A DNA stretch of 62,834 bases, filler included, from Candidatus Hydrogenedentota bacterium (lineage in GTDB: Bacteria > JBFMHD01): assembly GCA_040752395.1 (NCBI GenBank). It is 4 parts of 4 records of this genome, joined end to end, with 100 filler letters (N's around TTAATTAATTAA, not from the genome) between each part and the next. Parts side by side here need not be neighbours in the genome. Positions count along the whole stretch, not along the records: positions 1 to 29,498 come from JBFMHD010000008.1; positions 29,599 to 40,626 come from JBFMHD010000081.1; positions 40,727 to 51,748 come from JBFMHD010000082.1; positions 51,849 to 62,834 come from JBFMHD010000083.1. One strand, 5' to 3'. The position numbers and the translations under genes are program-made. Below the pieces are notes generated by a model. It did not search any database. It saw only the letters and a program-made list of their open reading frames with translations, and had not been told where the DNA came from. Below, one piece after another: positions 15,365 to 52,146 of the stretch; position 1 is the stretch's first letter; the number at the start of each line of letters is the position of its first letter.

Positions 15365-15556
15365 TCCTCCCCTAAAAAAGTAAGAAGTAAGAAGTGAGAA
15401 GTATCAGGACAGGCTACAGGCTACAGCCGGCTGGAGCCCCTATGAAAAGTCTTGAGTCTTGAGTCTCGAGTCCTGTTTTGACTCACGACTCTTTTCATAC
15501 TTTGTGCCTCTGTGCCTCTGTGCCTTTCCTTTCAATCTTTCAATCTTTCAATCTTT
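15365..15556 (-). repeat. Modular repeat array between xseA and xseB
   Basis: (TTTCAATC)3, (GTGCCTCT)n, (GAGTCTT)n/GACTC palindrome, GGCTACA + CAGCCGGCTG, (AGAAGTA)n, then SD GGAGG. Confidence 0.9.
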
Positions 15557-16904
15557 ATAACCCTTTTTTATCTTGTATTTTTGATAAAATGGTACCGTCA
15601 GAAACCCTTACTAAAATATCATCATCTTTTTCTACGCTATGAATACTTTTAATTAACTTTCTATTCTTATCTTCTACAATTGCATAACCACGATTCAAAA
15701 CATTCACCGGGTTGAGTAGCTTTATCCCTTGATTACTCTTTTCTAATGATTCTCTCTTTTTGTCAATAAACCTTCTATAATTATTAACAATCTTTTCCCT
15801 TAATACAAATAAATTATCTTTTTTTGTAGGAAGAAGTTTAAGCGGTGAATAAGCATTAAGGACTTTTATATAGTTATTTATTCTGTTATTTTTTAAATTT
15901 AATGAATTGCCGATCATATATCTCAGTCTGTTGATATTTTTTACCAATGCTTCATCTCTGTCACGTATCAATAATAAAGGCTGAACAAAATACCTGCATC
16001 CTTTTATATCTTCCATAACCTCTTCATAATAATTAATTCTATTATTCATAGATTTCATACCTCGATCGATTATTTTATTAAGATTTTTTATAAGCTCGTT
16101 TCGATCAGGCGTACAAATCTCAGCTGCCTCAGTCGGTGTTGCTGCTCTTCTGTCTGATACATAATCAACAATGGTCCAGTCGATCTCATGACCTACAGCT
16201 GAAACAACCGGTATCTCAGTCTCAAAAATCTCACGAGCAAGCGTCTCGTCATTAAAACACCATAAATCTTCCATCGATCCGCCGCCACGACCGATAATGA
16301 TAACATCTATGTTTTTAAAACTACGTGCTAATCTTAATGCTCTGATAATGTCCTCTGCTGCTCCTTCGCCCTGAACAAGTGCAGGAAAGAGATAAACCTT
16401 TACCCATGGTGCCCGCCTCTTTATCACACGTAAAATGTCCCGTATAACAGCCCCGGTTCTTGCTGTAATCACCCCTATCGTTTTTGCAAAACCTGGTATG
16501 GTTTTTTTATGTTCTGGTTCAAAAAGCCCTTCTCTTCTTAGTTTCTCTTTTATCTCTAAAAATTTTTTGTATAACTCTCCTTCACCAGTAGTCTGTATCT
16601 CCTGAATAATCAGAGAATATGTTCCACCCTCAATATAAACATCAAGCCTACATCTCGCAAAAACCTCCATCCCATCTAAAAGCTTGAATTTAAGCTTACT
16701 AGCTTCTCTTTTAAAAATTACAGCACGTATCTGTGAACGCCTGTCTTTTAGATTAAAATATATATGTCCTGAGGTATGATATTTTAAACTTGAGACCTCG
16801 GCTTTTACCCAGAAATCATTGAAAAATTGCTCTCGTTCAATATAAACTTTTAAAAAATGGTTTATCTGCGTAACTGTATATACTTTTCTTTCTTCAAGAG
16901 TCAT
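15555..16904 (-). CDS. xseA: Exodeoxyribonuclease VII large subunit
   Basis: SGHIYF, GRGGGSMEDLW, SAVGHE. Confidence 0.97.
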   Translation of the reverse strand: MTLEERKVYTVTQINHFLKVYIEREQFFNDFWVKAEVSSLKYHTSGHIYFNLKDRRSQIRAVIFKREASKLKFKLLDGMEVFARCRLDVYIEGGTYSLIIQEIQTTGEGELYKKFLEIKEKLRREGLFEPEHKKTIPGFAKTIGVITARTGAVIRDILRVIKRRAPWVKVYLFPALVQGEGAAEDIIRALRLARSFKNIDVIIIGRGGGSMEDLWCFNDETLAREIFETEIPVVSAVGHEIDWTIVDYVSDRRAATPTEAAEICTPDRNELIKNLNKIIDRGMKSMNNRINYYEEVMEDIKGCRYFVQPLLLIRDRDEALVKNINRLRYMIGNSLNLKNNRINNYIKVLNAYSPLKLLPTKKDNLFVLREKIVNNYRRFIDKKRESLEKSNQGIKLLNPVNVLNRGYAIVEDKNRKLIKSIHSVEKDDDILVRVSDGTILSKIQDKKGL

Positions 16905-16920
16905 ATTTTTCCTATCAATT

Positions 16921-16981
16921 TGAGCAGTCTGGCGAGTTTTTCGTCGGACCGCTCATCCTGAAGTCCGAAGTGCTGAAGGAC
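16921..16981. repeat. GC-rich intergenic palindrome (REP-like)
   Basis: tgagc-gtctggcga/tcgtcggac-gctca stem plus tcctgaa..gaagga. Confidence 0.4.
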
Positions 16982-17003
16982 CTCAAGAGAAATGGCTGGA
17001 TCT

Positions 17004-17858
17004 CTATTCGCAGAATGTCGACTGACACTTGTATAACTCCAGGGTGTTTTTCATAAGCATTGCTACTGTCATAGGACCAACACCCCCAGGTACAGGAGTT
17101 ATAAACTTCACCTTTTCTATTACTTCATCATAATCAACATCACCACATAGCTTACCATTAAGTCTATTCATTCCAACATCTATAACACAGGCCCCATCTT
17201 TCACAAAATCTTTATTTATCATCCTTGGCCTTCCTATAGCAGCTACTAAAATATCAGCTCTTTTACATACGTCTTTTAAATTATTAGTTTTAGAATGACA
17301 GATTGTCACAGTGGCATTCTCTCTAATCATTAGATGAAACAACGGCTTCCCCACTATATTACTTCTGCCTATAATAACAACTTCCCTCCCTTGAATCGTG
17401 ATATTATATCTTTTTAATAACTCAATAATACCTTTAGGTGTGCAGGGTTCTATAGTATCCAGTCCGGCAAATAATCGCCCCATATTATAAGGATGAAACC
17501 CATCAGCATCTTTTTGCGGCAAGATACTCTCTATAACCTTCTCTTTATCAATATGTTCTGGTAGTGGCAATTGAACTAATATCGCGGTAACATTTTTATC
17601 GTTATTAAGACTATTAATAAATTCGAGTAGTTTTTCATAAGATATATTTTTATCAAATTTATGTATTCTTGATTCTATTCCTATATTACAAGCAACTTCA
17701 TTTTTTTTCTTAACATAAATTGCCGAGGCAGGGTCTTCTCCCACGAGTATCACGCTTAACACCGGCTTTTTATTTAATTTAGCTATCTCTATTTTAATTT
17801 TCTGTATTATTTCTTCGTGTAATTTTTTACCATCAAGAAGAGTAAATGTATAAGACAT
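17004..17858 (-). CDS. folD: Methylenetetrahydrofolate dehydrogenase/cyclohydrolase
   Basis: LVQLPLP, KDADG, GRSNIVGKP, TPVPGGVGPMT. Confidence 0.97.
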   Translation of the reverse strand: MSYTFTLLDGKKLHEEIIQKIKIEIAKLNKKPVLSVILVGEDPASAIYVKKKNEVACNIGIESRIHKFDKNISYEKLLEFINSLNNDKNVTAILVQLPLPEHIDKEKVIESILPQKDADGFHPYNMGRLFAGLDTIEPCTPKGIIELLKRYNITIQGREVVIIGRSNIVGKPLFHLMIRENATVTICHSKTNNLKDVCKRADILVAAIGRPRMINKDFVKDGACVIDVGMNRLNGKLCGDVDYDEVIEKVKFITPVPGGVGPMTVAMLMKNTLELYKCQSTFCE

Positions 17859-20629: not shown

Positions 20630-20637
20630 CCGTTAAA

Positions 20638-20944
20638 CCTCCTCTGAAAAACATTCTAACTCTAATAATATCAAATAGAAGCAAGAGGCAAGAAGCAAGA
20701 TAACGGAAGAAGTGAGAGGTGTCAGGACAGGCTACAGGCTACGGACTACAGCCGGCTGGAGCCAAAAGCCAAAAGCCAAAAGCCTGCTGAAAAGTCTTGA
20801 GTCTTGAGTCTTGAGTCTCGAGTCCTGTTTTGACTCACGACTTGCGACTTGTGACTCTTTTCATACTTTGTGCCTCTGCGCCTCTGTGCCTCTGTGCCTT
20901 TCCTTTCAATCTTTCAATCTTTCAATCTTTGTGCCTCTGCGCCT
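20638..20944 (-). repeat. Modular repeat array upstream of rny, supplying its SD
   Basis: Full module series ending in TTTTTCAGAGGAGG, 8 nt before the ATG. Confidence 0.92.
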
Positions 20945-20964
20945 GACTGTCGTATTTAATACAA

Positions 20965-21101
20965 AATAGGGAGTTTTTATTTCTTGATTGATATGGCCAG
21001 TGTAACGCTGGACCTTTAACAAAAATCTATCTGAAAATTTTAATCTATAACTAAGGCGATGAAGCCTGTTTCACAACCAAGATAACCAAAAATTCCCTTT
21101 C
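20965..21101 (-). ncRNA. ssrS: Probable 6S RNA (short)
   Basis: Closing stem GGGAAUUUUU..UCUUGGUUG / CAAUCAAGA..AAAAACUCCC, central bubble with CCAG/CUGG hairpin, inner CCUU/AAGG stem; promoter upstream; located upstream of rny. Confidence 0.5.
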
Positions 21102-21193: not shown

Positions 21194-21649
21194 TCAATTT
21201 TTTATTTCCGGAATTACTTCAAGATACCTATCTATTTCTCTCTTAAACTTAGAATAAACCTCAGAGATGTGGTCCATTAAGGGCTTTAATTTTTCCCACT
21301 CTATAAGAAAACCATAAGCATGCGTAAAGAAATGACGAAAGACCCGATATTCATCTATCTTATCTGCGATTTCCCTCGATATAAAATTATGTTCAACGGA
21401 TAAACTCAATAAATCCCTGTGCCATGTTGGTGTGTCTGGTATTGGTATGTTTTTGTGTGATAACAGTTGCTTTAAAATATTTTCCATTCCTGTATAAGCA
21501 TTTTGGAGATATCCTCCTATCCCTACAATGACTACGAGTTGCTTGAAGGGTATATCTTTCACCTTTTCTATTTCGCTCAAAACTTTTGTAATATTTTCCA
21601 TCTCCGCGTAAACTTTTTCTTTTACACTAGCCATATAACACCAGCCCAT
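21194..21649 (-). CDS. HEPN toxin (HepT-like); likely start at MASV
   Basis: YTGMENIL, WHRDLL, FRHFFTHAY (Rx4H). Confidence 0.85.
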   Translation of the reverse strand: MGWCYMASVKEKVYAEMENITKVLSEIEKVKDIPFKQLVVIVGIGGYLQNAYTGMENILKQLLSHKNIPIPDTPTWHRDLLSLSVEHNFISREIADKIDEYRVFRHFFTHAYGFLIEWEKLKPLMDHISEVYSKFKREIDRYLEVIPEIKN

Positions 21650-21893
21650 CTTTTTCTATAAGTCTATTAAATGAACAATCTATGCTTAAATCAATAACGT
21701 CCACTGGAGAAGAGAGACCCCTGTCTAATTCTGCCCAGAATTTAAAAAATAATTCAGGTGCTAACCCAATTACACCTATATCTATATCTCGTGCATCCGT
21801 CCTTTCCTTTGATGAGCCGAAAAGAATTACTTTCTCTAATTTATACTTTTTAGCGTACGTTAATATTACATTTTTGTCGTTTTCAGATATCAT
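21627..21893 (-). CDS. MNT antitoxin
   Basis: LFGSS..ARDIDIGV..PVDVIDL. Confidence 0.85.
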   Translation of the reverse strand: MISENDKNVILTYAKKYKLEKVILFGSSKERTDARDIDIGVIGLAPELFFKFWAELDRGLSSPVDVIDLSIDCSFNRLIEKDGLVLYG

Positions 21894-21905
21894 TGTATGC
21901 TATAT

Positions 21906-22226
21906 CTCCTCTGAAAAACGCTGTAACTCTAATAATATCAAGTAGAAGCAAGAAGCAAGATAACGGAAGAAGTGAGAGGTATCAGGACAGGCTACAGGCT
22001 ACGAACTACAGCCGGCTGGAGCCCCCTATGAAAAGTCTTGAGTCTTGAGTCTCGAGTCCTGTTTTGACTCACAACTTGCGACTTGTGACTCTTTTCATAT
22101 CATCTTTAGTTTTTCATCCTTTGTGTAGAGCGCAAACCGCGCTCATGACGACTCCTTCGAAAAAGTTCGGAGTTCGGAGTTCGGGGTTCGGAGCTATTAT
22201 TACGAACTCCTAAGTTCTAACTCCTA
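21906..22226 (-). repeat. Modular repeat array upstream of MNT, supplying its SD
   Basis: (GGAGTTC)n/GAACTCC palindrome, internal SD+ATG, GTAG hairpin, GAGTC/GACTC and CAGCCGGCTG modules, terminal CAGAGGAG. Confidence 0.92.
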
Positions 22227-22310
22227 TGACAAGTTAAAAGTAAAGAAAGCGAAAATATACACTTCCCTGCCGTATCTTTTAATCTTTGAATCTTTGAACC
22301 ACTCAACTAT

Positions 22311-25300
22311 CTACTTTATCACTGTCACTTTCTTTATTACTCGCTCTCCGCGGTCATTCGTTATCACTATAATATATACACCGCTTGCTACGTCCTTGCC
22401 ACTCTTGTTCTTTAAATCCCACCGGGCTATGCCTAAGTTCAAAATAAAAAACTCATCCACAAGCTCACCTGCTATGTTGAATATCCTGATATTACAATTG
22501 GTTGTGAGATTTAGAATCTTTATACCGAACCGGTTGTCTGTGGTCGGAAGATTAGCTGTTGGTACACTGGGTTTCCATGGGTTGGGATATATTATTACGT
22601 TATTCAGGTTAGCTGCAGTCGCACCGCCAAGAGCAAAGATAGTAAGATGTGGGGTCGAATACCTAACAAGATTTAATGCTACATCAACCTCAGAATTATA
22701 TAATACCTCCCACTTTTTATTAGCCTCATCAAGATACATCATCTTTAGTAATTGCTCATCGACCGAACCAAGCTCAGCGTCAAGATACGGTAATACTATT
22801 GTCAGCTCTTTGCCTGAATTAAAAGTACTTATTACCTCATCTTCTAATGTTTTTACTATTATCTCCCAGGGTCTGTAATTAGAAAGTAAAGTTATACCCC
22901 GAGCCTGGGCTGAGGCATTAGCTACTGAAACCGTTTCAACACTTAAATCTACCCGTTTTATCTCAATTATAAACGGCATATCTATAATATTTTCAGGATA
23001 AGATATCTCTGCCTGTAAACCAGTTATTGTATCTATATATGAATAGCTACCAGCAACCCTGTGTGAATGATAAACAGTTGCACTGAAAGTATCAAAATAG
23101 GTGTTTAAATAATTAAAACTAAATACCACGGTCTCACCGGGAACTAAATTCGTATCAGAAACAAGATTGCGCCATTCCACTATATATCCTTTTGAATAAT
23201 AGAATACATCAGGTTTACGCTCTGTGTCCTGACTGTTCCCTGTTAGTCTATGCACATCCATTCTGTAATCATCAAGCCAGCCACTATCAAGCATTAATCC
23301 ACTAAAATATCCTTTAATAACTACGTTTATGTCTTTGTTAGTTATCTTATTTAGATACTCGTCATCTCCATATACTTCAAACCAGAATGTATCAAACTCC
23401 TGCTCAACTACGGTAATTTCATCGCTTCTACCATAAGCATATCCTTTATCAATAACATAATAATACCCACCATCTTTATTCAGTGTTGTAATTGTATTAG
23501 CTAATCCATTCTCGATATATAACTCTATTTCAGGGATAGAAGAGGCAGGCTGTACAGTTGAAAAATCATAAGGAACAACAGTTATGGTATCATCATAATC
23601 CACCACTGCACCAAATTTATCTACTAAAGTTATGCTCATTGCGAACCCGGTTCCTTTTCTTACAAGTAACGGTATAGAGATTAAAAACGTATCTTTTTCT
23701 GCACAGAAATAGAGTGTAGTTGTTGTTCCCACATCATCTATTGTTATAACTGATGTTCCTTGTGTATTTGATGATATATAAAATTCAGTAACACCGTGTT
23801 TTTCACCAACACTATGTGTAGGTTGGGTCGGTTGAATAATTGAATCTTCTAAGCTGGAGGAAGAGACTGTGACCCATTTTCCATTTATGCCAACACCCTC
23901 GGCATTCCTTAAAATTATATATCCTATTCTGCTATTACCATCTGCTGCGATCACAGGTTCTATCTGTATCTCTGAGGTACTTGAATCAGGTAATCGATCT
24001 AAGCCGGCTGCAAAGATCGAGAAATGATTACTCGTAAAAGTTATCTTGTTGTTCAGGGTATCAACAACACCGAGAAATGGTTCCCATTGCGATGTTGACT
24101 GATTATACCAGTATGGTCTTAGACTTGCTTCTGTCGCATCTGATAACCCGTCACCATCAGAGTCCACGCCAGATATCCGCTGTTCTTCTGGAACATCATT
24201 TGCCGAATAATATAAGATTATAGTTATATCATTCGAGAAATTGACTGAAGGATAGAACTCACGAGCAGCACCGGTTAATACAAGAGTATCTCCTGTTACA
24301 GAGGGGACATTTGTAGGTTTACGGGTGCCAATCGTTACGCCTTCAGCCAGTGTTTCGCCATCAGGAACTAAAACCGTTGGTCTACCATTCTCGAATAAAA
24401 TCCCGCCCTGTGAGGTTACTAATGCTTCATTGATAATATCCGTAGCCCGACCCTGCGTAACTTTTGATGAATTTATGGTCAATTGCACAAGTGAATCACC
24501 TGTTGGGTTCCAGTCTGCAAAAAATTCATTCACATTCGGGTCATTCTTTACAATTTGTTGAGGATAAGGAACCGCGTCTGTTGAATTATTATAATACCTC
24601 ATATATAAATTAAAATTACAACCATCAAAACTTGACGGCGTAGTATCATTCCCACCAAACGCATAAGTACCCCAGGAGAACACATTATTATCATCATAAG
24701 CATAAAGAATGACCTCATCTGTGCCTGACCACGTGGGATGAAACGCTACACCATTTGTATTATGACTCACTTTAACAAGGTGAGCATCAGATAAACTCCC
24801 GATGCCTGTATCAGGTATTGTTCCTAAATCTTTTATCACATAAACCCAGCCTGTAGTAAAGTTGCCTATAACAGGTGGGACACCAGTAGCATCAAGTATA
24901 GTACAGACAATCTTTGTGCCAGTCGAGTTCCAGCGAGGATTGATACATCGATATTTTGTACCTGGCGGGTTCCATAATTTTGTAAGTCTATCCATTGTTT
25001 TTTTAGCATTTAATGGTGATAATTGCTGGATATATAAATCCCCACCAAATGATACAACACATGTGCCGTTCCGTTCATCAATCTCGTAGAAAGGTGATGC
25101 GGGTGGATAATCCAGGGTGTCTGAATAAAGGCTCGAAACCCGCTGAGTATTTGCCTGTTCCTGGTCCGTAACACCATCAGAAATCTGCCAGAGCTCAGGT
25201 CCGCGCCATGGCGGACTCGGCTTTGTACCAACTAAATCATCTGCTGCAACTACAATATTGCCTCCACTTGTCCACTCTACATTCGAATGCGGCCAGATAA

Positions 25301-28300
25301 CCCATGAAGAGTTTGTAAGCTTCTGAATATTTGAGCCATCTGCATTCATAGCATATACACCATAGGAATCACCATTTATACGTTTAAGATATACTATCCT
25401 GCTGCCATTTATAGAATATCGTGCTCGAGATATAAAATCTTTGGTAGCACCGCCACCATCTGCATATAAACCACTGAGATCAACTGTCTGACCAAAATTA
25501 CCACCTATCGTTGTCTCGTTTACGTTCGTATATGCATAAAACTCTATGGTGTCTTTTTCCTGCACAGTACCATAACCTGACATCGTTGCAGTAATAACAG
25601 AGTATCCTGTTGTAGTAGATGATACCCTGAACTTTGTCTGGCCATAAGAATCACTAACATTGCTTACAGTAGTAATATTATCAAGTGCTCCTCTTGAACT
25701 GGATATCGAAACTGTAACACCTTGAACAGGCATTGTCTCTATATCGATAACCGTTACAGTAACCTCAGCATAATCGTTACCATCTGCAGCTGCGTTTGTT
25801 GCTGATACTTTAGATTTAGTGGTATCCGGTGAACATTGCACTCTGGCTGCATCACGGTCAGTATCAGTTGCATCATCCGGGTCACAATAGTACGCATAGA
25901 TTGTATCGCCATCCTGTACCTCAAATAAGCCATTATTTATCACAGGTGTATTATCATCATACATCCTTATGCCTTTACCGGAATTGTTAAACTCACCTGC
26001 ATCTGCTGCTATCTCTGTTAAAACAGGATATTCAGTATCTCCATTTGCATTATCTATCAGCGTTACTGTTATCGTCTCAACAACAATGTTGTTCTTATTC
26101 TGATTATAGTCTATAAGATAAAGATAAATACTATCACTAATCATATACCCAACTACGTCCTGCATACTTGCATTCTTAAATTCTATATCACCAACGTAGC
26201 CTGTAAACTCTTCTTGTGCACTGATATTATTTGCGACAACAACAGGCGATGGCGCTACATCGCACTGAACCGTAATGACCTCTACTGTGTTATCTGAAAA
26301 CGCAACTGTATCAGCGCCATCTGTTAAACTACCTCTTATCCTGCCATCGTCACCTACCTCATAAGGGTCGATAACCCAGCCACTCATACTCGAATTTAAG
26401 AAATAACCAGCACCTGTTAAATCTATCTCAATCGGGCCTGTATAATTGATGTCAATATTGTTATAACCATCCCGTGCTTCAACATTCTTCTGCGCTTTTT
26501 GCTGAACAATCTTGCTGCCTGTTGCTGGATATATGACTATCTTGTTCGCTATGACATTAATATCAGGTGTATCAGTTGACGAAGAGTTTAACGGTGTAGA
26601 AACAAGTTCTTGAGCATTTTGTACCAGCACTATGGATGACGCAAATGCATCGATCTTGTTTCTATCAGTCACTGTTGTATCTAAATTGTATGCTACGAAA
26701 AATATCGAATCACCACCATTGTCTATTCTGTGATTTATATCAAAGGTTATATAACCACCACTAAAGTTCGAAGAATAAAATAACGAATCCGAGGCTGAAC
26801 TAAATGAACCGTTGCCATCTTTATCTACATATAAATGAACTAATTCTACATTGTTGTTATCAGTATTTGCTGCCTGGATCTGGATATAATCAACTGTCCT
26901 GGAATCACCTGTGGCATTGGATATCGTAAACTTTAGAACTAAAACATTGGTCTCTCCCGGGTCCGCACCTACCCCATTATTCATACCATTTACATTGTTC
27001 GCTGCGGCTGTTATAAGATTGGTATATTGAACATAAACCGTATCTTCATAGCTCAAAACACTGGATGAATAGATTGATAACACCTCGGCTTGCGTATCCT
27101 TGACTGTAATCGTTGCATAACCTGATGATAGATCACCATTGATCGAGGTCACATTTGGGCCCGGGGTTGGCGAAGCACCTGATAACGTAGTCGCGGAGAA
27201 ATATGCACCAGTCTTCGGCGTTAGAGAGATAGTTAAATTAAGATTATACCCCTGCTGAGATGCTTCATAGTTTTTGAGCGTATCTCGATTACCATATTTA
27301 TCTATGGCTTCAATCGAGATCTCTTGTGTTGCATTCAACGCTAAAATAGTTGAATCCGGATACATATTCACTGTATCTGCAGCTACCTCGATCGCCGCGG
27401 TACCTGCTGAGTTTAAAACAAAATCCTCGATACTGCCACCTGTGGTCCCGATATCATAAGCCTCGATCTCTAAATCCAACAGAGTACCATCTGTTACAAA
27501 AGTGTCTATATGATAAGCTATATAATATCTTCGGGTTGAGACCCCAGGAATGGTTTCAGCAAGGTCCGAAAACGTTATATAATTAGTTGAAAAGGTATCT
27601 ATTGCTGGCGTTAAGAGTATATCACTACTCCATGGCTCATAGACACTGTCATTATCATCTTTGTAAAGGTTTACATCTATAATATCAACGTTGCTTGCGT
27701 TTAAACTGTGGATGGTTAAACTATCAAATGTTCTGTCCTGCGAGGAATTGTTTATAACCACAAAGTTCAGTATCAACATAGCGGTCTCACATGGACTTGC
27801 CCAGTTCTGACCAACACTCGTTACCCCAGCATCCATAATACTTGAGATAAGTGTCGCAGAATCATAACTGCCAGCAACCTCTATCGCATATACTTGCAAC
27901 GGGTCCGGTGCAAACCTGTCATTATAATCATAGATAACAGGTCTTGTATCAGAAACAGTAACAAAATTATTCTGTACCCCTAAATCACCTGTTGTTGTTC
28001 CTTTATCCTGGATTATACTATACCAGAGTGTATCACTGCTATTTGCATAAATAGTTTTATTCCCAGGCTCTGTAATAGTAAACTCTGATGTTTTATCAAC
28101 ATTGTTTATTTTCAAAACAAGATCAGAATCACCAGGTGTAACATACGCATCTGCGCCGCCACTATCACAACTTAATACCAATGCTGCTTTAAAACTCTCA
28201 CCAACTGTTAATGTCCCGAGATTAATCCGCGTCAGGCCATCTGAACGATATAGCCATAAAACAGTATTCCTTACCACTGCTTTATTCTGAATCGTTATAT

Positions 28301-29598: not shown

Positions 29599-29665
29599 GA
29601 GTCCTGTTTTGACTCACGACTTGCGACTTGTGACTCACGACTCTCGACCCCTAACCCCTAACCGC
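29599..29665 (-). repeat. Partial modular repeat array at contig end
   Basis: gagtcctgttttgactcacgacttgcgacttgtgactc plus (CCCCTAA)2. Confidence 0.85.
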
Positions 29666-29688
29666 CGCCCCCTAATATACCCCATCCC

Positions 29689-30429
29689 CTAATATCCTTT
29701 GTGCCTTCTCCTCCTGTGTTCTATCAATTCATACATCTCTTCTATAGCTTTTGGTAATCCGACAAATACCGCTCTTGAGATGATACTGTGGCCGATATTT
29801 AATTCATTAATACCCTCAATTGCTGTGATGCGCGCTGTATTCTGATAATTCAAGCCGTGGCCTGCATTAACTATAATGCCTGCTTTTAAGCCGGTTTTAC
29901 AAGCTTTAAGAATACGATTATATTCTTCAAAAATCGCATTTCTTGTTTTTGCTTCTGCATATTTGCCGGTATGCAGTTCTACACAATCCGCTCCAATCTC
30001 TTTACAGAGTTTAACAATACTGCAATCTGGATTAATAAAGATACTCACTCTTATACCTTTATCCTGTAATTGAGGTATAACTTTATTTAATCTATTTAAT
30101 TCTTTTTTTACATCAAGACCGCCCTCTGTTGTTATCTCCTGTCGTTTTTCAGGTACTATACATACATCATCTGGTTTAACCCTTAATGCAAATTTTACTA
30201 TTTCTTTTGCTAAAGACATCTCAAGATTAAGTTTTTTATTTATTTCATTTCTGATTCTTATAACATCTTCATCCTGGATATGTCTTCTGTCTTCACGAAG
30301 ATGAACGGTTATCCCTGCAGCTTTACTTTTTTCAACAATCCGTGCAGCTTCTAAAACATCTGGTTCTCTGCCACGTCTTGCCTGTCTTAGTGTAGCTATA
30401 TGATCAATGTTAACACCAAGTAAAACCAT
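29689..30429 (-). CDS. pdxJ: Pyridoxine 5'-phosphate synthase
   Basis: LGVNIDHIATLR, HLREDRRHI, NAGHGL, NIGH. Confidence 0.97.
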   Translation of the reverse strand: MVLLGVNIDHIATLRQARRGREPDVLEAARIVEKSKAAGITVHLREDRRHIQDEDVIRIRNEINKKLNLEMSLAKEIVKFALRVKPDDVCIVPEKRQEITTEGGLDVKKELNRLNKVIPQLQDKGIRVSIFINPDCSIVKLCKEIGADCVELHTGKYAEAKTRNAIFEEYNRILKACKTGLKAGIIVNAGHGLNYQNTARITAIEGINELNIGHSIISRAVFVGLPKAIEEMYELIEHRRRRHKGY

Positions 30430-30435
30430 AGCTCT

Positions 30436-30500
30436 GACTCCTTCGAAAAACGCTGTAAGTATAATAATTTTAGGCTTCAGCCGGCTGAAGCCCGTAGTCT
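30436..30500 (-). repeat. Short repeat array supplying the pdxJ SD
   Basis: Perfect 20-bp palindrome ggcttcagccggctgaagcc plus TTACAGCGTTTTTCGAAGGAG. Confidence 0.85.
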
Positions 30501-30512
30501 AAAGTCAACATA

Positions 30513-31460
30513 TCATCTCTGGTTTTTCATAATCCTTATTTTTTCTGGTTTAATTGAAAGAACTTTTATATTTTCAGGGCTCTTTTTTACAATTACAGAA
30601 ACTAATGTCCCTGGTTTCTTTATATCATCCTGCAAAGATATAATAAAATCATCGTTGGTTAGTTCTTTAATAATCGTACTTGGTCCTTCAATCTGGAGTT
30701 CCACTGTATCAGTTGATAATTTATACAGGTTATCGTCTTCAAATTCTATATAATCCTGAATAAATCTATTAATTATTCTTTCTTTAACGTTTATAATCAC
30801 TCTTACTTCATCTTTATCAGACATTATAAACTCATTTGGTAACAAAAGTTTTAGATTAGTTTCGAAATTAGATTTTATTCCTTCAATTGAGAGACTGAGA
30901 GTTTTTAATTCCTCAATTTTATTTATGATATTTTCTGGTCCTTCAATATATACTTTGGATGGGATATTCACTATGGATTCTATTTCATAATCTTCATTAA
31001 CATCGCCTTTTATATCTGATTTAACAGCGACGGTCTTTTTTAATTTTTTAGCCAGAACTATTTTAACTTCCTGTGGGTTTATCTCCTGAACACTCATATT
31101 TTCAAGGAATCCAAAATCATCAGCGGAGAGTTTATATAAAAACGAGCCGGGTTTATTTCTATTAATGTTCAATTCTATTTCAGGTGATTGTGCACTGTAT
31201 TTTTTTAAAATATAAAGGGGTCCCTTCGCGTTTATTCTCACCTGTTTTATTGTTCCTTGAGTAACTACCAGATTGGGTGAATAATCCACAAACCTGAGGT
31301 TCACGTTTATTGTATATTCGGCCTCCTCATTAACAGCCACGATTGACCATGTAATAAAAGCAAGAAACAAACAGGTAATTATAACGCCGATATTTTTATT
31401 TAAAAATTCAGCTGTTTTTCTTTTGATTTTCTCGAGTGAATATAAGAAAGCCATAGCCAC
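30513..31460 (-). CDS. cdaR: CdaR/YbbR-domain protein
   Basis: N-terminal TM and YbbR-like repeats (PSKVYIEGP); follows cdaA. Confidence 0.85.
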   Translation of the reverse strand: MAMAFLYSLEKIKRKTAEFLNKNIGVIITCLFLAFITWSIVAVNEEAEYTINVNLRFVDYSPNLVVTQGTIKQVRINAKGPLYILKKYSAQSPEIELNINRNKPGSFLYKLSADDFGFLENMSVQEINPQEVKIVLAKKLKKTVAVKSDIKGDVNEDYEIESIVNIPSKVYIEGPENIINKIEELKTLSLSIEGIKSNFETNLKLLLPNEFIMSDKDEVRVIINVKERIINRFIQDYIEFEDDNLYKLSTDTVELQIEGPSTIIKELTNDDFIISLQDDIKKPGTLVSVIVKKSPENIKVLSIKPEKIRIMKNQR

Positions 31461-31461
31461 C

Positions 31462-36473: not shown

Positions 36474-36478
36474 AATAG

Positions 36479-36608
36479 TCCTCCTCTGAAAAACATTGTA
36501 ACTCTAATGATATCAAGTAGAAGCAAGAAGCAAGAAGCAAGATAACGCAAAAACGCAATAACCCAATAACCCAATAACCCAATAGTGTAGAGCGCAAACG
36601 CGCTCATG
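36479..36608 (-). repeat. Modular repeat array between yidC and jag
   Basis: GTAG hairpin, (AACCCAAT)n, (AGAAGCA)n, terminal CAGAGGAGG SD. Confidence 0.92.
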
Positions 36609-38348: not shown

Positions 38349-38371
38349 CTTCTTTCGTTGTCTTTCTTTTT

Positions 38372-38402
38372 CGTTATCTTGCTTCTTGCTTCTAAATCTC
38401 AC
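38372..38402 (-). repeat. AGAAGCA module in sense orientation upstream of yidC
   Basis: agaagcaagaagcaagataacg on the minus strand; inverted relative to 36526-36547. Confidence 0.75.
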
Positions 38403-38416
38403 CTATAATTGTTGGC

Positions 38417-39096: not shown

Positions 39097-39102
39097 TGCG
39101 AA

Positions 39103-39430
39103 CCTCCTCTGAAAAACATTGTAACTATAATAATATCAAGTAGAAGCAAGAAGCAAGAAGCAAGATAACGGAAGAAGTGAGAGGTGTCAGGACGGGCTAC
39201 AGGCTACAGGCTACGGACTACAGCCGGCTGGAGCCAAAAGCCCAAAGCCTGCTGAAAAGTCTTGAGTCTCGAGTCCTGTTTTGACTCACGACTTGCGACT
39301 TGTGACTCTTTTCATATCATCTTTAGTTTTTCATACCTTGTGTAGAGCGCAAAAACGCAATAACGCAATAACCCAAGAACCCAAGAACCTAATAGTGTAG
39401 AGTGCAAACCGCGCTCATGACGACTCCTTT
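39103..39430 (-). repeat. Modular repeat array upstream of rpmH, supplying its SD
   Basis: Complete module series from AAGGAGTCGTCATG to TTTTTCAGAGGAGG. Confidence 0.92.
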
Positions 39431-39919
39431 AAAGAAGTAAACAACTTTAATTTTTTAATCCATGCCTCTATTTCAGACTTTATGCTGTTAAAAATTTCTT
39501 CGTTGCGTATAACTAATGGTTTCATTTTTAACCATCTTATTTCAAAGGTATATGCCTGGCGAAAAAAAATGCCTGAACTCAAGATATTTTACTATTTCTT
39601 CTCTTATTTCTTTTGAAATAACCGCTGGTCTTTTCTTGGTTGGTACCGTCATTATATCGATTAATTCTTTATGCCAGTAACCGTCCTTTTTTAAACTCTC
39701 GTTAAATTCTACTATAATTCTTTTAAAAATATTTTCAATTCCTGTATAATAAGAATGTAGAAATGCGGCTAAAGCTGATATTTCAACAACACCAGGGACC
39801 TCATTTTTACATTTTTTAATTAAAAGTTTATGTGTTTCAATCAATTTTTCAATTTGGTGTAATTCAAGTTCGATCTGCTTTATAACCTTATTGTTATCCA
39901 ACACGATATAACTCCTCAC
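39415..39919 (-). pseudogene. HEPN toxin with a frameshift in a T8 run and a degenerate active site
   Basis: Removing one T at 39562-39569 gives FRHFFRQAYTFEIRWLKMKPL..SLKESS*, collinear with the 21194 paralog. Confidence 0.8.
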
Positions 39920-40217
39920 TATCGTTTTTTAAATACTCAGTAAATATTGTTTTCTCATCAAGATCAATTAAATCAACCGGCCGTTTTAATACATCAGTGA
40001 TTTTTGCCATTATCTCAAAATATCTTTCTTCAGGTAATCCTGATACAGCGATATCAACATCAGAGTAAACTGAAAATCTGTTTTTCAATATTGAGCCAAA
40101 TAAATATATATCTTTTGCTCCGTAGCCTTTCAATATAGAGATAGTCTTATCGATTTTTTCTTTTATATTCGCTTCTATTTTTAAGTAATTATTTTTATTT
40201 ACACTAATACTTTTCAT
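39894..40217 (-). CDS. MNT antitoxin
   Basis: YLFGSIL..SDVDIAVSGL..PVDLIDL. Confidence 0.88.
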   Translation of the reverse strand: MKSISVNKNNYLKIEANIKEKIDKTISILKGYGAKDIYLFGSILKNRFSVYSDVDIAVSGLPEERYFEIMAKITDVLKRPVDLIDLDEKTIFTEYLKNDSEELYRVG

Positions 40218-40626: not shown

Positions 40627-40726
40627 NNNNNNNNNNNNNNNNNNNNNNNNNNNNNNNNNNNNNNNNNNNNTTAATTAATTAANNNNNNNNNNNNNNNNNN
40701 NNNNNNNNNNNNNNNNNNNNNNNNNN
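40627..40726. other. Artificial contig linker
   Basis: N44-TTAATTAATTAA-N44. Confidence 0.98.
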
Positions 40727-40928
40727 TCGAGACTCAAGACTCAAGACTTTTCAGGAGGCTTTTGGCTTTTGGCTCCAGCCGGCTGTAGTCCGTAGCCTGT
40801 AGCCTGTCCTGATACCTCTCACTTCTTCCGTTATCTTGCTTCTTGCTTCTTTCGTTATCTTTCTTTCCGTTATCTTGCTTCTTGCTTCTACTTGATATTA
40901 TTATAGTTACAATGTTTTTCAGAGGAGA
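40727..40928 (+). repeat. Modular repeat array at contig start, supplying the GT4 gene SD
   Basis: Reverse complement of the 20638/39103 arrays; ends GTTTTTCAGAGGAG. Confidence 0.92.
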
Positions 40929-40941
40929 CTAATATACTAAT

Positions 40942-42057: not shown

Positions 42058-42063
42058 TTATAT

Positions 42064-42091
42064 AAGGCACAGAGGCACAGAGACACAAAGT
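42064..42091 (+). repeat. (AGAGGCAC)n module
   Basis: aaggcacagaggcacagagacacaaagta = reverse complement of the 15498-15527 module. Confidence 0.7.
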
Positions 42092-42101
42092 ACAGATTAA
42101 T

Positions 42102-45006: not shown

Positions 45007-45011
45007 TTTTA

Positions 45012-45093
45012 CTCCTCTGAAAAACGCTGTAACTCTAATAATTCGGGGTACAGGCTACGGGCTACGGACTACAGCCGGCTGGAGCCCGAAGCC
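45012..45093 (-). repeat. Short repeat array supplying the SBP SD
   Basis: Identical to ~51885-51965; GAGGAG 5 nt before the ATG. Confidence 0.9.
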
Positions 45094-45275
45094 AACATAT
45101 CATTTATTAAATCGGCTAATAAAAATAAATAGTTGACAAATATTTAAAGTTATGGTAATTATTTTACGAAAAATATAATATAATAGTTGTTTAAATATTA
45201 TTATAGAGGGGGTATAACTCATTGAAACGATAACATCGGCAATTTAGTTTTGATCTTTTGGGAAGTGAATATTTG

Positions 45276-48101: not shown

Positions 48102-48131
48102 CTTCCTGGTTCTTACTTCGCTATCACAAGA

Positions 48132-48396
48132 GTGAGATAACGAAAGAAGCAAGAAGCAAGAAACAAGAGGCACAAAGGCACCTGCCTGCGCCGCGCTCCG
48201 CCGCGGCAGGCAGGCAAAAGCACAAAGCATGAAAAACTAAAGATGATATGAAAAAAGTCGTGAGTCACAAGTCGCAAGTCGTGAGTCAAAACAGGACTCA
48301 AGACTCAAGACTTTTCATAGGGGGCTCCAGCCGGCTGTAGTCCGTAGCCAGTAGCCTGTACCCCGAATTATTAGGGTTGAGGAGTTTTCAGAGGGG
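48132..48396 (+). repeat. Modular repeat array upstream of mltG, with an extra CCTGCCTGC..GCAGGCAGG palindrome
   Basis: Shared modules in the same order, ending TTTTCAGAGGGG. Confidence 0.9.
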
Positions 48397-48413
48397 TGGG
48401 TTAACAGTGTGTT

Positions 48414-50549: not shown

Positions 50550-51748
50550 GGTTTTCAATGAATCGACGCAAAAACATCAGAGAGAAGAGAGAGCCAGGAT
50601 TAATTAGAAAATTTACTAAGGCTCTATTTAATTTTATTTTCTTTACCGCAAAGAATAATGAAATTAATGGTCTTATACTTATGGGTATCGGTATCGTATT
50701 GTTTCTTACTCTGGTCTTTAATATCAATATAGTAGCGATAAAAAATTCCTCGCTTGAATATACAGGTATTATTGGTTCTTCTGTGGCTTATTATCTTTTT
50801 TTATTACTTGGGTGGACCGCATTTTTATTGCCAGCTGGTATCTTTTATACAGGTTATAATGTTTTTATAAATAAACCAATAGAAAAGAAGATATTAAAAA
50901 TTATCGGAATAATTCTTGCTCTTATATATTATTCAAGTCTTCTCTCATTATTGTTTGGAGAGATAAGTTATCCGAGAGAGGAGTTGCAGGGGGTTGCTGG
51001 TGGGATGCTTGGTGCCTTTGTTTCGTTTTATACCGTAAAATATTTCGGTAAAATACTGGGTTATCTTATTATTGTATTTGCCTGTACAGTCTCTATACCA
51101 ATGGTAACTCCGATCTCTTTACGGAGTATCTGGTTATTTATACGTGAGATTGCGGTAAGTATTATCAAGTTTAAGATGGGTATATTTAAAAAATTATATG
51201 TTTATATACGAGATAAGTTAAAAGAAGCTATAAGAAGATTTAATGAAGCAAATCTTAGAAAAATACAAGAAAGTAAAAAAATAGACCTGATACCAGAAAC
51301 AATCAAACACCAGGGGACTAAGGCCAAAGTAATTAAAACAGAAGCTCCGGGAAAAGAGGTTGAGATAGGTGGTATAGAAGAGAAAAAAACAGTAAAAGAG
51401 ATAGAAAAGAAACAAAAAGTAAAAGATATTATAAAAAAAGATATCGATGAATATCAGTTCCCACCAGTTGATTTAATGAACCCACTTCTGGAAGTGGATG
51501 TTTCAGAAACAAAAGAAGAGATCGAACAGAGAGCAAAGAAACTTGAAGAAACCCTACGTCAATATGAGGTAGAATGCGAGGTTAAAGCTGTAAATAGAGG
51601 ACCAACAGTAACACAATTCGAGGTACAGGTAACACCAGGAACAAAATTAAGCAACCTCACTGCACGCTCAGGCGAGATTGCTTATGCTATGGCTTGCTCG
51701 AGTGTTAGGATTGAAGCGCCTATCCCTGGTAAAACCGCTATTGGTATA
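50546..51748 (+). CDS. ftsK: DNA translocase FtsK, N-terminal part (truncated by gap)
   Basis: 4TM domain, YQFPPVDL, GPTVTQFE, RIEAPIPGK. Confidence 0.9.
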
Positions 51749-51848
51749 NNNNNNNNNNNNNNNNNNNNNNNNNNNNNNNNNNNNNNNNNNNNTTAATTAA
51801 TTAANNNNNNNNNNNNNNNNNNNNNNNNNNNNNNNNNNNNNNNNNNNN
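51749..51848. other. Artificial contig linker
   Basis: N44-TTAATTAATTAA-N44. Confidence 0.98.
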
Positions 51849-51868
51849 ACAATGATGATATACCACAT
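51849..51868 (-). CDS. 5' end of a CDS truncated by the contig end (MWYIII..)
   Basis: ATG downstream of the array-derived GAGGAGGTGAT. Confidence 0.4.
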
Positions 51869-51881
51869 ATATTTATAATCA

Positions 51882-52146
51882 CCTCCTCTGAAAAACGCTG
51901 TAACTCTAATAATTCGGGGTACAGGCTACGGGCTACGGACTACAGCCGGCTGGAGCCCGAAGCCTGCTAAAAAGTCTTGAGTCTTGAGTCTTGTTTTGAC
52001 TCACGACTCTTTTCATATCATCTTTAGTTTTTCATATATTGTGTAGAGCGCAAAAACCCAAAAACGCAATAACGCAATAACCCAATAACCCAATAACCCA
52101 ATAACCCAATAGTGTAGAGCGCAACCCGCGCTCATGGGTACTCCTC
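51882..52146 (-). repeat. Modular repeat array
   Basis: GAGGAG+ATG, GTAG hairpin, (AACCCAAT)n, GAGTC/GACTC, CAGCCGGCTG, terminal SD. Confidence 0.92.

Follow-up and report, generated by a model that had tools for sequence, protein, structure and literature searches.

Upstream of at least 12 unrelated genes of an uncultured bacterium (Candidatus Hydrogenedentota) stands a single patchwork of short tandem repeats and hairpins, which raises the question of whether the repeat itself carries the Shine-Dalgarno (SD) sequence of the genes that it precedes. The window analysed here, that is the whole stretch of 62,834 nt, consists of four contigs joined by N linkers. An earlier note on this DNA had named arrays at 13 sites; the sequence of each was read, and all 13 coordinates were found to carry modules of a single kit (Table 1). 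Gene identities were confirmed by Pfam for rny, xseA, xseB, ispA, dxs, pdxJ, jag, the GT4 glycosyltransferase, the SBP_bac_5 binding protein, YceG/mltG and the Polbeta nucleotidyltransferase (MNT), while rpmH was assigned from its reading as a 44-aa basic ORF.

Arrays do lie inside conserved operons (xseA-xseB-ispA-dxs and yidC-jag), and the gene order around them is the expected one, including rpmH-rnpA-yidD-yidC-jag-mnmE. The genes that they lead (rpmH, rny, dxs, xseB, pdxJ, jag, mltG and those for the glycosyltransferase, the binding protein and the antitoxin) share no common theme, and at pdxJ and YbbR the last codons and stop codons are overlapped by arrays. Contig ends fall at arrays too, as had been remarked: contigs 2 and 3 begin within them and contig 4 begins 18 nt past an array-led start codon. 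The same array was also found in a separate public assembly (L001), 9 nt upstream of a start codon. HepT/MNT paralogues flanking arrays are only 32–37% identical, and the arrays are, by this comparison, younger than their neighbouring genes.

Table 1. Arrays (A1–A13) and module fragments in the window, with their genomic context and modules.
Feature	Coordinates	Strand	Context	Modules and terminal motif
A1	35..268	-	before partial gene at window start	other tandem blocks, end of K module, (TACTTCT)n, short core GTTTCTCAAAGGAGG; motif as matched ends 8 nt upstream of ATG at 34
A2 (mini-array)	14245..14270	-	fills ispA-dxs spacer	one CCGAACT unit and TTTTTCAGAGGTG, 5 nt upstream of dxs ATG
A3	15362..15554	-	fills xseA-xseB spacer, stop codon onward	(GATTGAAA)n, (GAGGCACA)n, GAGTC/GACTC hairpin, CCAGCCGGCTG hairpin, (TACTTCT)n, TTTTTTAGGGGAGG
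A4	20630..20975	-	before rny	full 3' half with 31-nt tail; GAGGAG 9 nt from ATG
A5	21894..22310	-	before MNT antitoxin gene	CCGAACT hairpin with internal TTTTTCGAAGGAG-5 nt-ATG junction, R hairpin, K module, both periodic hairpins, tail; GAGGAG 12 nt from ATG
A6 (partial)	29599..29720	-	contig start	(GAGGCACA) unit providing last codons and stop of pdxJ, then (TTAGGGG)n, left arm of GAGTC hairpin
A7	30430..30535	-	before pdxJ	K-module variant providing last six codons and TGA of YbbR; variant CAGCCGGCTG hairpin, variant tail (GAAGGAG)
A8	36474..36608	-	fills yidC-jag spacer	R hairpin, (TTATTGGG)n, (CTTGCTT)n, tail; GAGGAG 7 nt from jag ATG
(CTTGCTT)n / CGTTATCT module fragment	38349..38416	+	yidD-yidC spacer, antisense to yidC	without SD tail
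A9	39097..39430	-	before rpmH	most complete copy: R hairpin, octamers, K module, both hairpins, pyrimidine blocks, tail; GAGGAG 7 nt from ATG
A10	40727..40941	+	contig start, before GT4 glycosyltransferase gene	GAGGAG 14 nt from ATG
(GAGGCACA)n fragment alone	42058..42101	+	between GT4 and next ORF	without SD tail
A11	45007..45100	-	before SBP_bac_5 gene, divergent spacer	end of K, CCAGCCGGCTG hairpin, TACCCCGA joint, tail; GAGGAG 5 nt from ATG
A12	48102..48413	+	before mltG/YceG	antisense (CTTGCTT)n piece at 48132-48165, G+C hairpin, K module, both hairpins, degenerate tail (CAGAGGGGTGGG) 13 nt from ATG
A13	51867..52147	-	methyltransferase stop codon to partial gene at contig start	R hairpin, octamers, K module, both hairpins, TACCCCGA joint, tail; GAGGAG 14 nt from ATG

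Three hairpins of the arrays are of a 'periodic' kind (GAGTC/GACTC; GGCT..CCAGCCGGCTG..AGCC; GGAGTT/CCGAACT), their arms being mirror-image heptamer runs in which the unit numbers of the two arms vary independently. Modules are freely present or absent, unit number is variable and the 5' borders differ at each locus. The order of what is present is nearly constant: 258 of 266 within-array module pairs agree with a single master order, taken from the same arrays on which concordance was scored, and none of 10,000 order shuffles equalled that. Module matches in the arrays were 80 in sense and one in antisense. The claim that order and orientation track the downstream gene holds except for two short antisense pieces, in the yidD-yidC spacer and within A12, both opposite to the neighbouring gene; with these and one tail-less fragment, the placement rule is not absolute. 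The arrays are oriented by gene and not by strand: a single contig has both orientations. When whole arrays were folded as RNA, the z-scores were modest (-0.6 to -3.3; one array at +1.1).

Searches of the window with the terminal motif GTTTTTCAGAGGAG, allowing up to two mismatches, gave 11 matches (seven of them exact) where 0.61 were expected, a number reached in none of 100 shuffles. Ten of these immediately precede a start codon and are on the same strand as its gene, which bears out the statement that a terminal GAGGAG precedes the named genes. The distance of 'a few nt' given for the MNT gene was in error (Table 1). The eleventh match (54557) lies inside a gene and was set aside as chance.

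In eight copies the motif is the end of a common 31-nt tail ending in GAGGAG. The eight tails scored at E≤1.2e-8 in the window, where the next match had E=0.07, so that no decayed tail copies were found in that search. Pairwise, the tails differ at 0–7 of 31 positions; three are identical, and at two variable sites all four combinations are present. Identity runs without a break up to GAGGAG(G) and ends there, the 4–14 nt before the ATG being locus-specific; the SD is thus part of the repeat, as the earlier note had proposed. In front of xseB, dxs and the window-start gene, a short T-rich-plus-SD core follows other heptamers, without the 31-nt tail. The array genes have the strongest SDs of the window: averaged over the 12 array genes, the pairing energy was -10.3 kcal/mol, compared with -4.1 over the 40 remaining genes (Mann-Whitney p=4e-6), although the start codons of these 40 are those of the longest ORFs, which may understate their SDs. 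Only about seven of the 40 reach a pairing energy of -8 kcal/mol or stronger, most having a weak SD or none; the CAGAGGAG form was absent from those strong-SD genes that were read. For four of the 12 array genes the SD-to-ATG distance is 12–14 nt, longer than expected of a functional SD, and SD exposure was neither higher nor lower than with shuffled upstream sequence. The SD of the arrays is probably used by the downstream gene.

Arrays at unrelated loci have exact stretches of 39–82 nt in common, compared with no more than 12 nt in any of 66 control pairs; the longest is common to A11 and A13. Joints between modules are shared as well, e.g. TACCCCGA plus tail in A11, A12 and A13, with a near-identical joint in L001. 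Because of these stretches and whole module junctions, it follows that the arrays were copied between loci as composites, in line with the earlier proposal. The best-matching partner array changes from module to module. Growth by nested accretion is only suggested, by SD-like tails within arrays and the internal SD-5 nt-ATG junction of A5.

The arrays were compared with the nearest lineage, a candidate phylum of 25 genomes. The relatives considered are distant (best identities: Rny 58%, YidC 38% full-length, Dxs 53%). The 25 genomes are rich in dispersed, genome-specific heptamer hairpins: one unit has 153 matches in genome G003 and another 58 in G015, and reversed-pattern controls gave none. 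The hairpins occupy operon spacers, from the stop codon to the native SD. At yidC-jag, tandem arrays with differing units are present in 8 of 17 genomes, always between the stop codon and the native SD context, and 7 of 17 have empty, repeat-free spacers of 7–49 nt; this junction is thus empty or differently filled, rather than holding a fixed identical array, and its native SD context is conserved with or without an array. Hairpins of the relatives at the same gene junctions are simpler and without the GAGGAG ribosome-binding site, and in G003 only 2–3 of 17 pattern matches were at heptamer arrays.

No mobilising enzyme was seen anywhere in the window, in agreement with the earlier note, and neither a four-helix-bundle gene nor a Y1 gene is within it. 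In the nearest phylum, only the first of these two is tied to heptamer arrays. Of the 25 genomes, 22 contain four-helix-bundle genes (TIGR02436), which the family's database note describes as flanked by heptamers, with as many as 38 matches in a single genome; in all eight loci read, these genes were flanked by heptamer arrays. A limited literature search found no paper on such flanks. In G003 the same unit flanks a four-helix-bundle gene and forms gene-less hairpins. Y1_Tnp genes, present in 17–18 of the 25 genomes, were not tied to the arrays: eight loci had one heptamer array in 18.9 kb (0.05 per kb), compared with 1.07 per kb at four-helix-bundle loci.

On balance we lean slightly towards regarding the arrays as copies of a lineage-specific, high-copy, non-coding mosaic repeat whose composite gained an SD tail and then spread to gene starts. 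The mosaic is built from tandem 7–8-nt blocks and the three periodic hairpins, the latter being of the same kind as the gene-less heptamer hairpins in operon spacers and four-helix-bundle flanks of the nearest phylum. In this organism the hairpin composite would have gained its unique tail, which is 31 nt long, rich in A and U and terminates in GAGGAG(G), and the entire composite would then have been propagated to many gene starts by a presumed copying mechanism and enzyme. The array is probably transcribed within the leader or inter-cistronic RNA, and ribosomes probably bind at its tail to start on the gene that follows. Copies may later have drifted by slippage in unit number, deletion between short homologies and exchange between copies. 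An SD within the repeat, composite copying and sites in conserved operons support the earlier reading as an SD-carrying mobile mosaic; the lack of a mobilising gene in the window speaks against it. Active mobility is inferred, as is targeting of initiation regions as opposed to selection or conversion.

Conversion is nevertheless a minor possibility to be weighed. Ectopic gene conversion or template switching between leaders, rather than insertion, could have spread the arrays and kept them alike, seeded by shared heptamer blocks and pre-existing SD-like purine runs and needing neither an element-specific enzyme nor targeting; the SD would then be a homology anchor and not cargo. The reticulate similarity, the four combinations of tail variants, the independent unit numbers of hairpin arms and the window free of a mobilising gene are all consistent with this, and homogenisation would predict the lack of decayed tails. 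A ready SD anchor would, however, usually be missing, because most non-array genes have a weak SD or none. Homology would be needed on both sides, yet the 5' borders differ, and a first copy in a repeat-free spacer, such as the empty yidC-jag sites, is left unexplained. The chance is slimmer still that the arrays are conserved as a shared cis-regulatory leader that places many genes under one post-transcriptional control, e.g. as an RNA-binding-protein site, an RNase Y or RNase III processing site or a ribosome standby site, with spread being secondary. Such a leader would fit the strict orientation and position and the near-identical, undecayed tails. It has a precedent in the start-proximal heptamer repeats of Beggiatoaceae, proposed as regulator sites (PMC4679880), and Nostoc heptamer repeats are reported to affect expression (10.1101/2022.06.06.494920). 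The genes served have no common theme, however, and no fixed array structure is kept, because modules come and go and unit numbers vary; Rfam returned no match to the arrays at gathering score and chance-level matches only at E≤1, and SD accessibility is that of shuffled controls.

It is very improbable that the arrays are of REP/RAYT or IS200/IS605 type, with the R hairpin plus CTAC and the GTAG-containing heptamers acting as sites of a Y1 HUH transposase and with single-strand movement. CTAC does follow the R module, a short G+C hairpin, GTAG occurs within (TAGCCTG)n, and Y1_Tnp genes are common in the relatives; against this, the Y1_Tnp loci are poor in heptamer arrays, the enrichment of GTAG/CTAC in arrays is mild (35 observed, 21.7 expected), the arrays are not inverted REP pairs, their orientation follows the gene and the window has no Y1 gene. 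Scarcely credible, finally, is an origin of the arrays, or of the gene joins across them, in metagenome assembly or binning. Contigs are linker-joined, three contig ends are in or beside arrays and chimeric joins can arise where repeats exceed read length, yet arrays are contig-internal between genes in expected order, the same array recurs in L001 and differences between copies are orderly.

The mosaic repeat that we favour shares features with several known systems. BIMEs/REP elements of enterobacteria combine palindromic units and short motifs in a set order and are extragenic and of high copy number; they lie mainly after genes or between operon genes, leave the SD untouched, occur in alternating orientation and are linked with RAYT transposases. 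The window arrays are likewise a mosaic of palindromic units and short motifs in set order, without the alternating orientation or the RAYT tie. TIGR02436-flanking heptamer arrays differ in having a four-helix-bundle gene. The three periodic hairpins have the form of the mirror-paired heptanucleotide simple-sequence repeats of Xanthomonas and Nostoc (Rehm et al. 2015, PMC4692102). These too are tandem 7–8-nt units in convergent, hairpin-capable pairs, mostly intergenic near gene ends and genome-specific in sequence, whereas the window joins several hairpins and blocks in one order, copies them together and adds a unique non-repetitive SD tail. TAACTGA direct repeats of marine Beggiatoaceae, some Cyanobacteria and Bacteroidetes are oriented toward the start codon in 147 of 170 sets, mostly ending within a few nt of it (MacGregor 2015, PMC4679880). 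Like the window arrays, they precede unrelated and essential genes, ribosomal-protein genes included in their case, without a known mobilising mechanism in that account; they are one unit only and not a mosaic, and overlap the ribosome-site position without SD character (about 10% of repeat spacers also have an SD), whereas a strong SD forms the end of the window repeat.

MIRUs (mycobacterial interspersed repetitive units) are apparently mobile and insert at operon start codons with gene expression spared, via a small ORF coupled to the gene by a -4 overlap (PMC12548453); the window arrays lack a coupled small ORF (ATGA overlap in 1 of 11) and offer an SD instead. In Streptococcus pneumoniae and S. 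suis, the interspersed BOX elements are likewise composites, in which a middle module of varying copy number is combined with end modules; operon transcripts include them, slippage alters them, and certain modules influence how the following gene is expressed (Croucher et al. 2011, PMC3049150). Unlike in the window arrays, the ends of BOX elements are inverted, with a link to an IS element, and heptamer mirror hairpins are absent; as far as that account extends, fixed start-codon orientation or contact and SD cargo go unreported, and ORFs formed in BOX are without good SD candidates.

As the SD lies outside the repeat in the relatives, the SD-carrying repeat is known from one organism only. 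Relative to the simpler heptamer hairpins of related genomes, the GAGGAG ribosome site inside the repeat is new.

The modules described in the earlier note were found, on reading, at all 13 of the named sites. The fullest copy stands before rpmH, and its build is given in the table below, together with the coordinates of other features of the window. The GAGTC/GACTC, GGCT/AGCC and GGAGTT/CCGAACT arms have a period of 7, tandem 7-8-nt units being arranged as inverted pairs. Altogether the arrays amount to 2,855 nt, or 4.6% of the window, with a G+C content of 43% vs 35% elsewhere, and modules of the family occupy 13-16 of the 34 window spacers of at least 15 nt. Of the contig ends, three fall within an array or next to one; the earlier note had spoken of several. 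The composites vary in the number of their internal modules; the R module, as read, is a short palindrome with adjacent GTAG/CTAC that occurs once per array, in a single orientation and in just 4 of the 13 arrays. Array sequence also extends into upstream genes: PdxJ takes its final residues and stop codon from a (GAGGCACA) unit, and YbbR its last six residues and TGA from a ATGAAAAAC... module.

Features of the window and modules of the fullest array
Feature	Position	Description
Linkers, N runs (N-TTAATTAATTAA-N)	29499-29598, 40627-40726, 51749-51848	in the window of 62,834 bases, four contigs
Fullest array copy	39097-39430	before rpmH; modules below read in the direction of the downstream gene
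rpmH array, first module		G+C hairpin, ATG at its start, CTAC at its end
rpmH array, second and third modules		(TTATTGGG/TTATTGCG)n, then ATGAAAAACTAAAGATGATATG
rpmH array, next module		hairpin with arms of GAGTC- and GACTC-heptamer runs
rpmH array, second periodic hairpin		(GGCTTTT)n-CCAGCCGGCTG-(TAGCCNG)n
rpmH array, 3′ end		pyrimidine block, (CTTGCTT)n, then ATTATTATAGTTACAATGTTTTTCAGAGGAG
Antisense array pieces, two	48132-48165	the other in the yidD-yidC spacer
Lone array piece	42058-42101	spacer with (GAGGCACA)n
MNT/HepT pairs, three	10797-11476, 21194-21893, 39542-40217	within 63 kb
606-aa ORF	269-2089	region 269-3493; adjoins the first array
2377-aa ORF	22311-29444	start region heads toward a contig end
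yidC	36609-38402	longest-ORF start, GTG at 38402

The usual module order given in the earlier note was recovered: 258 of the 266 within-array pairs were concordant with a master order, a value equalled in 0 of 10000 order shuffles, and the eight discordant pairs all trace to a single SD-like motif inside the MNT array. As the master order was drawn from the tested arrays themselves, the shuffle test proves only that one consistent order exists. The accompanying claim that orientation follows the downstream gene held for 80 sense module matches and failed for one antisense match. The arrays contain 37 GAGTC/GACTC sites (4.6 expected), and the rest of the window 35 (67 expected); GATC and GTAG/CTAC are also fewer than expected outside the arrays, and the scarcity of all these sites there may reflect restriction avoidance.

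The motif GTTTTTCAGAGGAG, allowing up to two mismatches, has 11 matches in the window against 0.61 expected, a number reached in none of 100 shuffles. Seven of the matches are exact, and ten lie immediately 5′ of a same-strand start codon, the eleventh being within a gene. A profile of the last 31 nt of the arrays, the tail, retrieved eight copies from the window at E≤1.2e-8, the next match having E=0.07; no decayed tail copies appeared in this search. The eight tails differ from one another at 0-7 of the 31 positions, and three are identical. At xseB, dxs and the first gene of the window only a short core (a T-run and the SD) is present, joined to other heptamers, without the 31-nt tail. Each of the 12 arrays that carry an SD tail or core is directed at the start codon next to it. 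From the end of the purine run to the ATG there are 4-9 nt at xseB, dxs, the binding-protein gene, jag, rpmH, pdxJ, rny and the first gene of the window, and 12-14 nt at the MNT gene, GT4, mltG and the partial gene starting at 51866; none of these four far-spaced cases has a second SD between tail and ATG. The near and far groups proposed earlier therefore exist, with the correction that the MNT gene, previously placed in the near group, belongs by its 12-14-nt distance with the far-spaced genes.

Identity between copies is continuous from the tail through GAGGAG(G) and stops there, the bases onward to the ATG being locus-specific. SD pairing was scored against the usual 16S anti-SD tail, the window being without a 16S gene. 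Its mean was -10.3 kcal/mol for the 12 array genes vs -4.1 kcal/mol for 40 others, whose start codons are longest-ORF calls (Mann-Whitney p=4e-6), and only about seven of these 40 pair at -8 kcal/mol or better. The unbroken tail identity and the pairing energies together indicate that the SD is part of the repeated unit, as the earlier note had held. On paper, the array SD is the best ribosome site of the array genes, and would be the one used.

Arrays at unrelated loci have exact stretches of 39-82 nt in common. The longest, 82 nt, links the array of the binding-protein gene with that at 51867; the MNT and GT4 arrays share 60 nt, and the rny and rpmH arrays 59 nt. Among 66 control pairs of random 300-nt pieces the longest match was 12 nt. 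The shared stretches cross joints between modules. Thus, the joint TACCCCGA + tail, in which the pyrimidine blocks are skipped, is common to three window arrays and near-identical in L001, an outside contig from a separate assembly, and the joint GATATG + TTGGCTTC, in which the first hairpin is skipped, is common to one window array and L001. Since module joints are shared between loci, the composites were duplicated after the joints had formed, which bears out the earlier view that they have been copied into essential operons. The 3′ end of the arrays is constant and the 5′ ends are different at each locus, a pattern that argues for a copying process anchored on the gene-start side. Similarity is moreover reticulate, the rny array being nearest to rpmH in one hairpin, to GT4 in the other and to xseB at the 5′ end, which argues that conversion between copies acts too. 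At two variable tail sites all four combinations are seen, and this points to exchange between array copies. The unit numbers of the two hairpin arms vary independently of each other, which fits slippage.

Ordinary bacterial housekeeping genes make up the gene content of the window. Pfam matches confirmed dxs, ispA, xseB, xseA, rny, pdxJ, YbbR, jag, YbaB, the GT4 glycosyltransferase, the SBP_bac_5 binding protein, YceG/mltG, three HepT/MNT toxin-antitoxin pairs, dnaK, folD, spoVS, ymdB, cdaA, mnmE and others; rpmH, rnpA, yidD and yidC were identified by reading ORFs. Two of the MNT/HepT pairs lie directly upstream of the arrays leading rny and rpmH, and one pair is itself array-led. For the 606-aa ORF, neither Pfam at its curated cut-off nor the PDB sequences gave a match; its likeness is to phage/plasmid primase-associated P-loop proteins (PF27228 clusters; atlas score 0.96; structure TM ~0.7), and in the 1-kb 'spacer' after it there is a small ORF resembling a ribbon-helix-helix-type regulator. 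This region is probably an integrated mobile element, rather than the mover of the arrays. The 2377-aa ORF has a weak C-terminal match to a T9SS sorting domain, below the family cut-off. The longest-ORF call for yidC reads through an antisense repeat fragment; its true start is likely the ATG at 38348.

Several other accounts of the arrays were considered. That they travel with the HepT/MNT toxin-antitoxin genes is ruled out by the genes themselves, as the pairs beside three arrays are mutually just 32-37% identical; the arrays are far younger than these neighbours and are not co-transported with them. An integron cassette array (attC) was rejected, there being no integrase among the window ORFs and the arrays lying in core operons with conserved gene order. 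The statement that no mobilising enzyme is visible was upheld for the scanned window ORFs, among which no transposase, integrase, reverse transcriptase or HUH protein was found. The window likewise has no Y1 (RAYT) gene flanked by repeats and no TIGR02436 four-helix-bundle gene (NCBIfam, 13 ORFs; tblastn with eight proteins of relatives, E at least 0.9).

Explanations of the arrays as regulatory or coding sequence were weighed on the same stretch. A promoter inside the arrays was discarded: promoter-like counts were at or just modestly over the shuffle means (29 vs 25.4, sd 4.7; 100 vs 73.9, sd 9.9), and no sigma-70-type site recurred in the arrays or in the tail. Masking of the SD by the pyrimidine blocks was also dismissed, because the unpaired probability of the SD was the same as in upstream-shuffled controls. 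RNA folding displayed the two periodic hairpins, and whole-array z-scores were modest, lying between -0.6 and -3.3 except in one array (+1.1). Rfam gave no match at the gathering score over the window and two chance-level matches only when two arrays were searched at E≤1, and the window has no tRNA genes. A coupled ORF was sought in 11 arrays; an ATGA overlap was present in just one, and no ORF was conserved.

Outside the window, an exact-pattern search for the tail in public genome contigs returned one sequence among the matches listed, L001 (2.2 kb), which carries the same array, its end 9 nt away from a downstream start codon. The bin holding L001 has its own Rny, 52% identical to that of the window, and is without another array; L001 probably stems from an organism closely related to that of the window, having been binned into a different genome. 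The 18-nt hairpin pattern gave just single chance matches in public genome contigs, all in G+C-rich genomes. There were no matches to the tail in JGI metagenome contigs, none to two array modules in viral contigs and none by blastn of an array against plasmids and phages. The best protein identities found anywhere (Rny 54-58%, Dxs 53%, YidC 33-38% full-length) are highest in the 25-genome phylum of the L001 bin (G001-G025), and the window's organism is near or within this small candidate phylum.

The genomes of this phylum are rich in tandem 7-10-nt arrays, frequently in inverted pairs. The units are genome-specific and dispersed, one having 153 matches in G003 and 7 in G004 and another 58 in G015, with 0 matches to reversed-pattern controls in these genomes. 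A constant CAGAGG after the arrays in G003 was found at only 2-3 of 17 pattern matches. In the same genome (L306, G003:C200:2300-2750) a higher-order tandem array follows a heptamer hairpin, its ~60-nt unit of pyrimidine block and heptamers being repeated ~3x. Separately, a (TTCATCC)x4 run lies in the mnmE reading frame ~1.1 kb after yidC at locus L077 (6679-6709); the run recurs at that position in about 10 other Thermodesulfovibrionia/Nitrospirota loci (L070, L078, L084, L086, L108 and others), across many species, and so seems to be a heptamer repeat conserved as coding sequence.

The yidC-jag junction was compared in 17 genomes in which both genes are adjacent. Eight carry tandem 7-8-nt arrays of seven different units in spacers of 63-160 nt, two carry another hairpin or an irregular insert, and seven have repeat-free spacers of 7-49 nt. 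In the relatives, an array extends from the stop codon to the immediate 5′ side of an SD context conserved between species, in filled and empty spacers alike: ...CACAAGGAG... occurs in six genomes, three filled and three empty, and ...TAGGAGGTAAAAA... in four more, a fifth having a close variant of it. Empty sites, which the earlier note had expected in relatives, thus exist, the junction is a repeated target, and the SD of the relatives is native and not cargo. In more distant genomes the spacer measures -4 to 27 nt at 22 of 25 loci; in the window it is 135 nt. The siting between a stop codon and the next ribosome site holds for the window arrays as well, and presence varies among relatives. 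Two sister genomes (L296 in G009, L298 in G010) have the same heptamer unit at this junction, one arm holding ~15 and ~4 copies, respectively, which cleanly illustrates how rapidly an array can grow or shrink. A 49-nt yidC-jag spacer (L281, G013) has three successive SD-like purine runs before jag, two TAGGAGG and one TAGGAGGG.

TIGR02436 four-helix-bundle genes are present in 22 of the 25 related genomes, with up to 38 matches in one, and in 1 of 14 controls. At all eight loci read, in eight genomes, heptamer arrays lie on both sides of the gene, mostly in inverted orientation, and one G003 unit both flanks a four-helix-bundle gene and forms gene-less hairpins at many loci. In relatives, 7-8-nt arrays have a density of 1.07 per kb at four-helix-bundle loci, 0.31 at rny and 0.50 at yidC; eight Y1_Tnp loci hold one heptamer array in 18.9 kb (0.05 per kb). 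Of the array-flanked enzyme genes suggested earlier, these densities and flanks support the four-helix-bundle link in relatives and not the RAYT/Y1 one. AAGTCGT, the unit at one four-helix-bundle locus, recurs in the first hairpin arm of the window, which may be chance.

The window hairpins belong to a known yet unexplained kind, the heptamer mirror repeats, which occupy spacers beside ribosome sites and border four-helix-bundle genes; arms around such a gene are seen in the relatives and are not a feature of the window. In substance, the nearest known counterparts are the convergent heptamer pairs described in Xanthomonas (PMC4692102). In position, the TAACTGA repeats of Beggiatoaceae come nearest; they consist of a single unit, mostly without SD, and 147 of 170 sets point toward a start codon (PMC4679880). 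Direct heptamers aimed at, and ending beside, the start codon are seen in the window too; however, TAACTGA repeats replace the SD and have no SD character, whereas the window arrays end in GAGGAG(G). MIRUs, the closest in strategy, are said to insert at start codons with expression kept via a coupled ORF (PMC12548453); their small ORF, with a stop that overlaps the next start (-4 coupling), is not a feature of the window arrays. BOX elements are closest in build. They have end modules, a variable middle module and inverted ends, with no tie to start codons reported in the pages relied on (PMC3049150); variable internal modules are shared with the window arrays, but the terminal inverted repeats and defined two-sided ends of BOX and MITE-like elements are not, nor is the repeat-flanked Y1 gene of REP/BIME with RAYT. 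What is special to the window's arrays is the fixed order of several hairpins and blocks, the copying of the composite to many gene starts and the A/U-rich, non-repetitive tail with a strong SD. Neither an ordered SD-carrying mosaic nor the four-helix-bundle/heptamer link was found described in the literature searched, supplements apart.

One tentative reading, which we hold to be rather improbable as a whole, is that the arrays are a self-propagating 'gene-start cassette'. Heptamer-hairpin elements tied to four-helix-bundle genes would have captured a ribosome-binding tail and would now spread by self-copying to positions immediately 5′ of start codons, displacing the native ribosome site, so that the host could not lose them from essential operons. 

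Apart from the cassette reading, capture is a plausible origin of the tail, an array abutting the initiation region of a gene having been copied along with that region. In three arrays an internal SD-like run is followed, after 5 nt, by the ATG that opens the first hairpin module, two of them having exactly the same spacer; this junction looks like a fossil of capture and lends at most some colour to accretion. Targeted mobility, accretion and use of the array SD are what we infer.

Heptamer repeats are widespread in bacteria and have been noticed for a long time, but to our knowledge they lack an explanation. In the window they become traceable, as one composite known by its shared joints and copied with its own ribosome site, and the four-helix-bundle link in the nearest phylum offers a concrete candidate partner. 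The arrays also break metagenome assemblies and can mislead the calling of start codons, the yidC start of the window being one case. If the tail is a working ribosome site, the repeat would be part of the expression signals of essential genes (rpmH, rny, dxs), its persistence inside operons would be explained, and a natural set of modular leaders would be on offer. The cassette reading, if true, would represent a new strategy for selfish DNA and provide a first means of tracing how such repeats move in bacteria.
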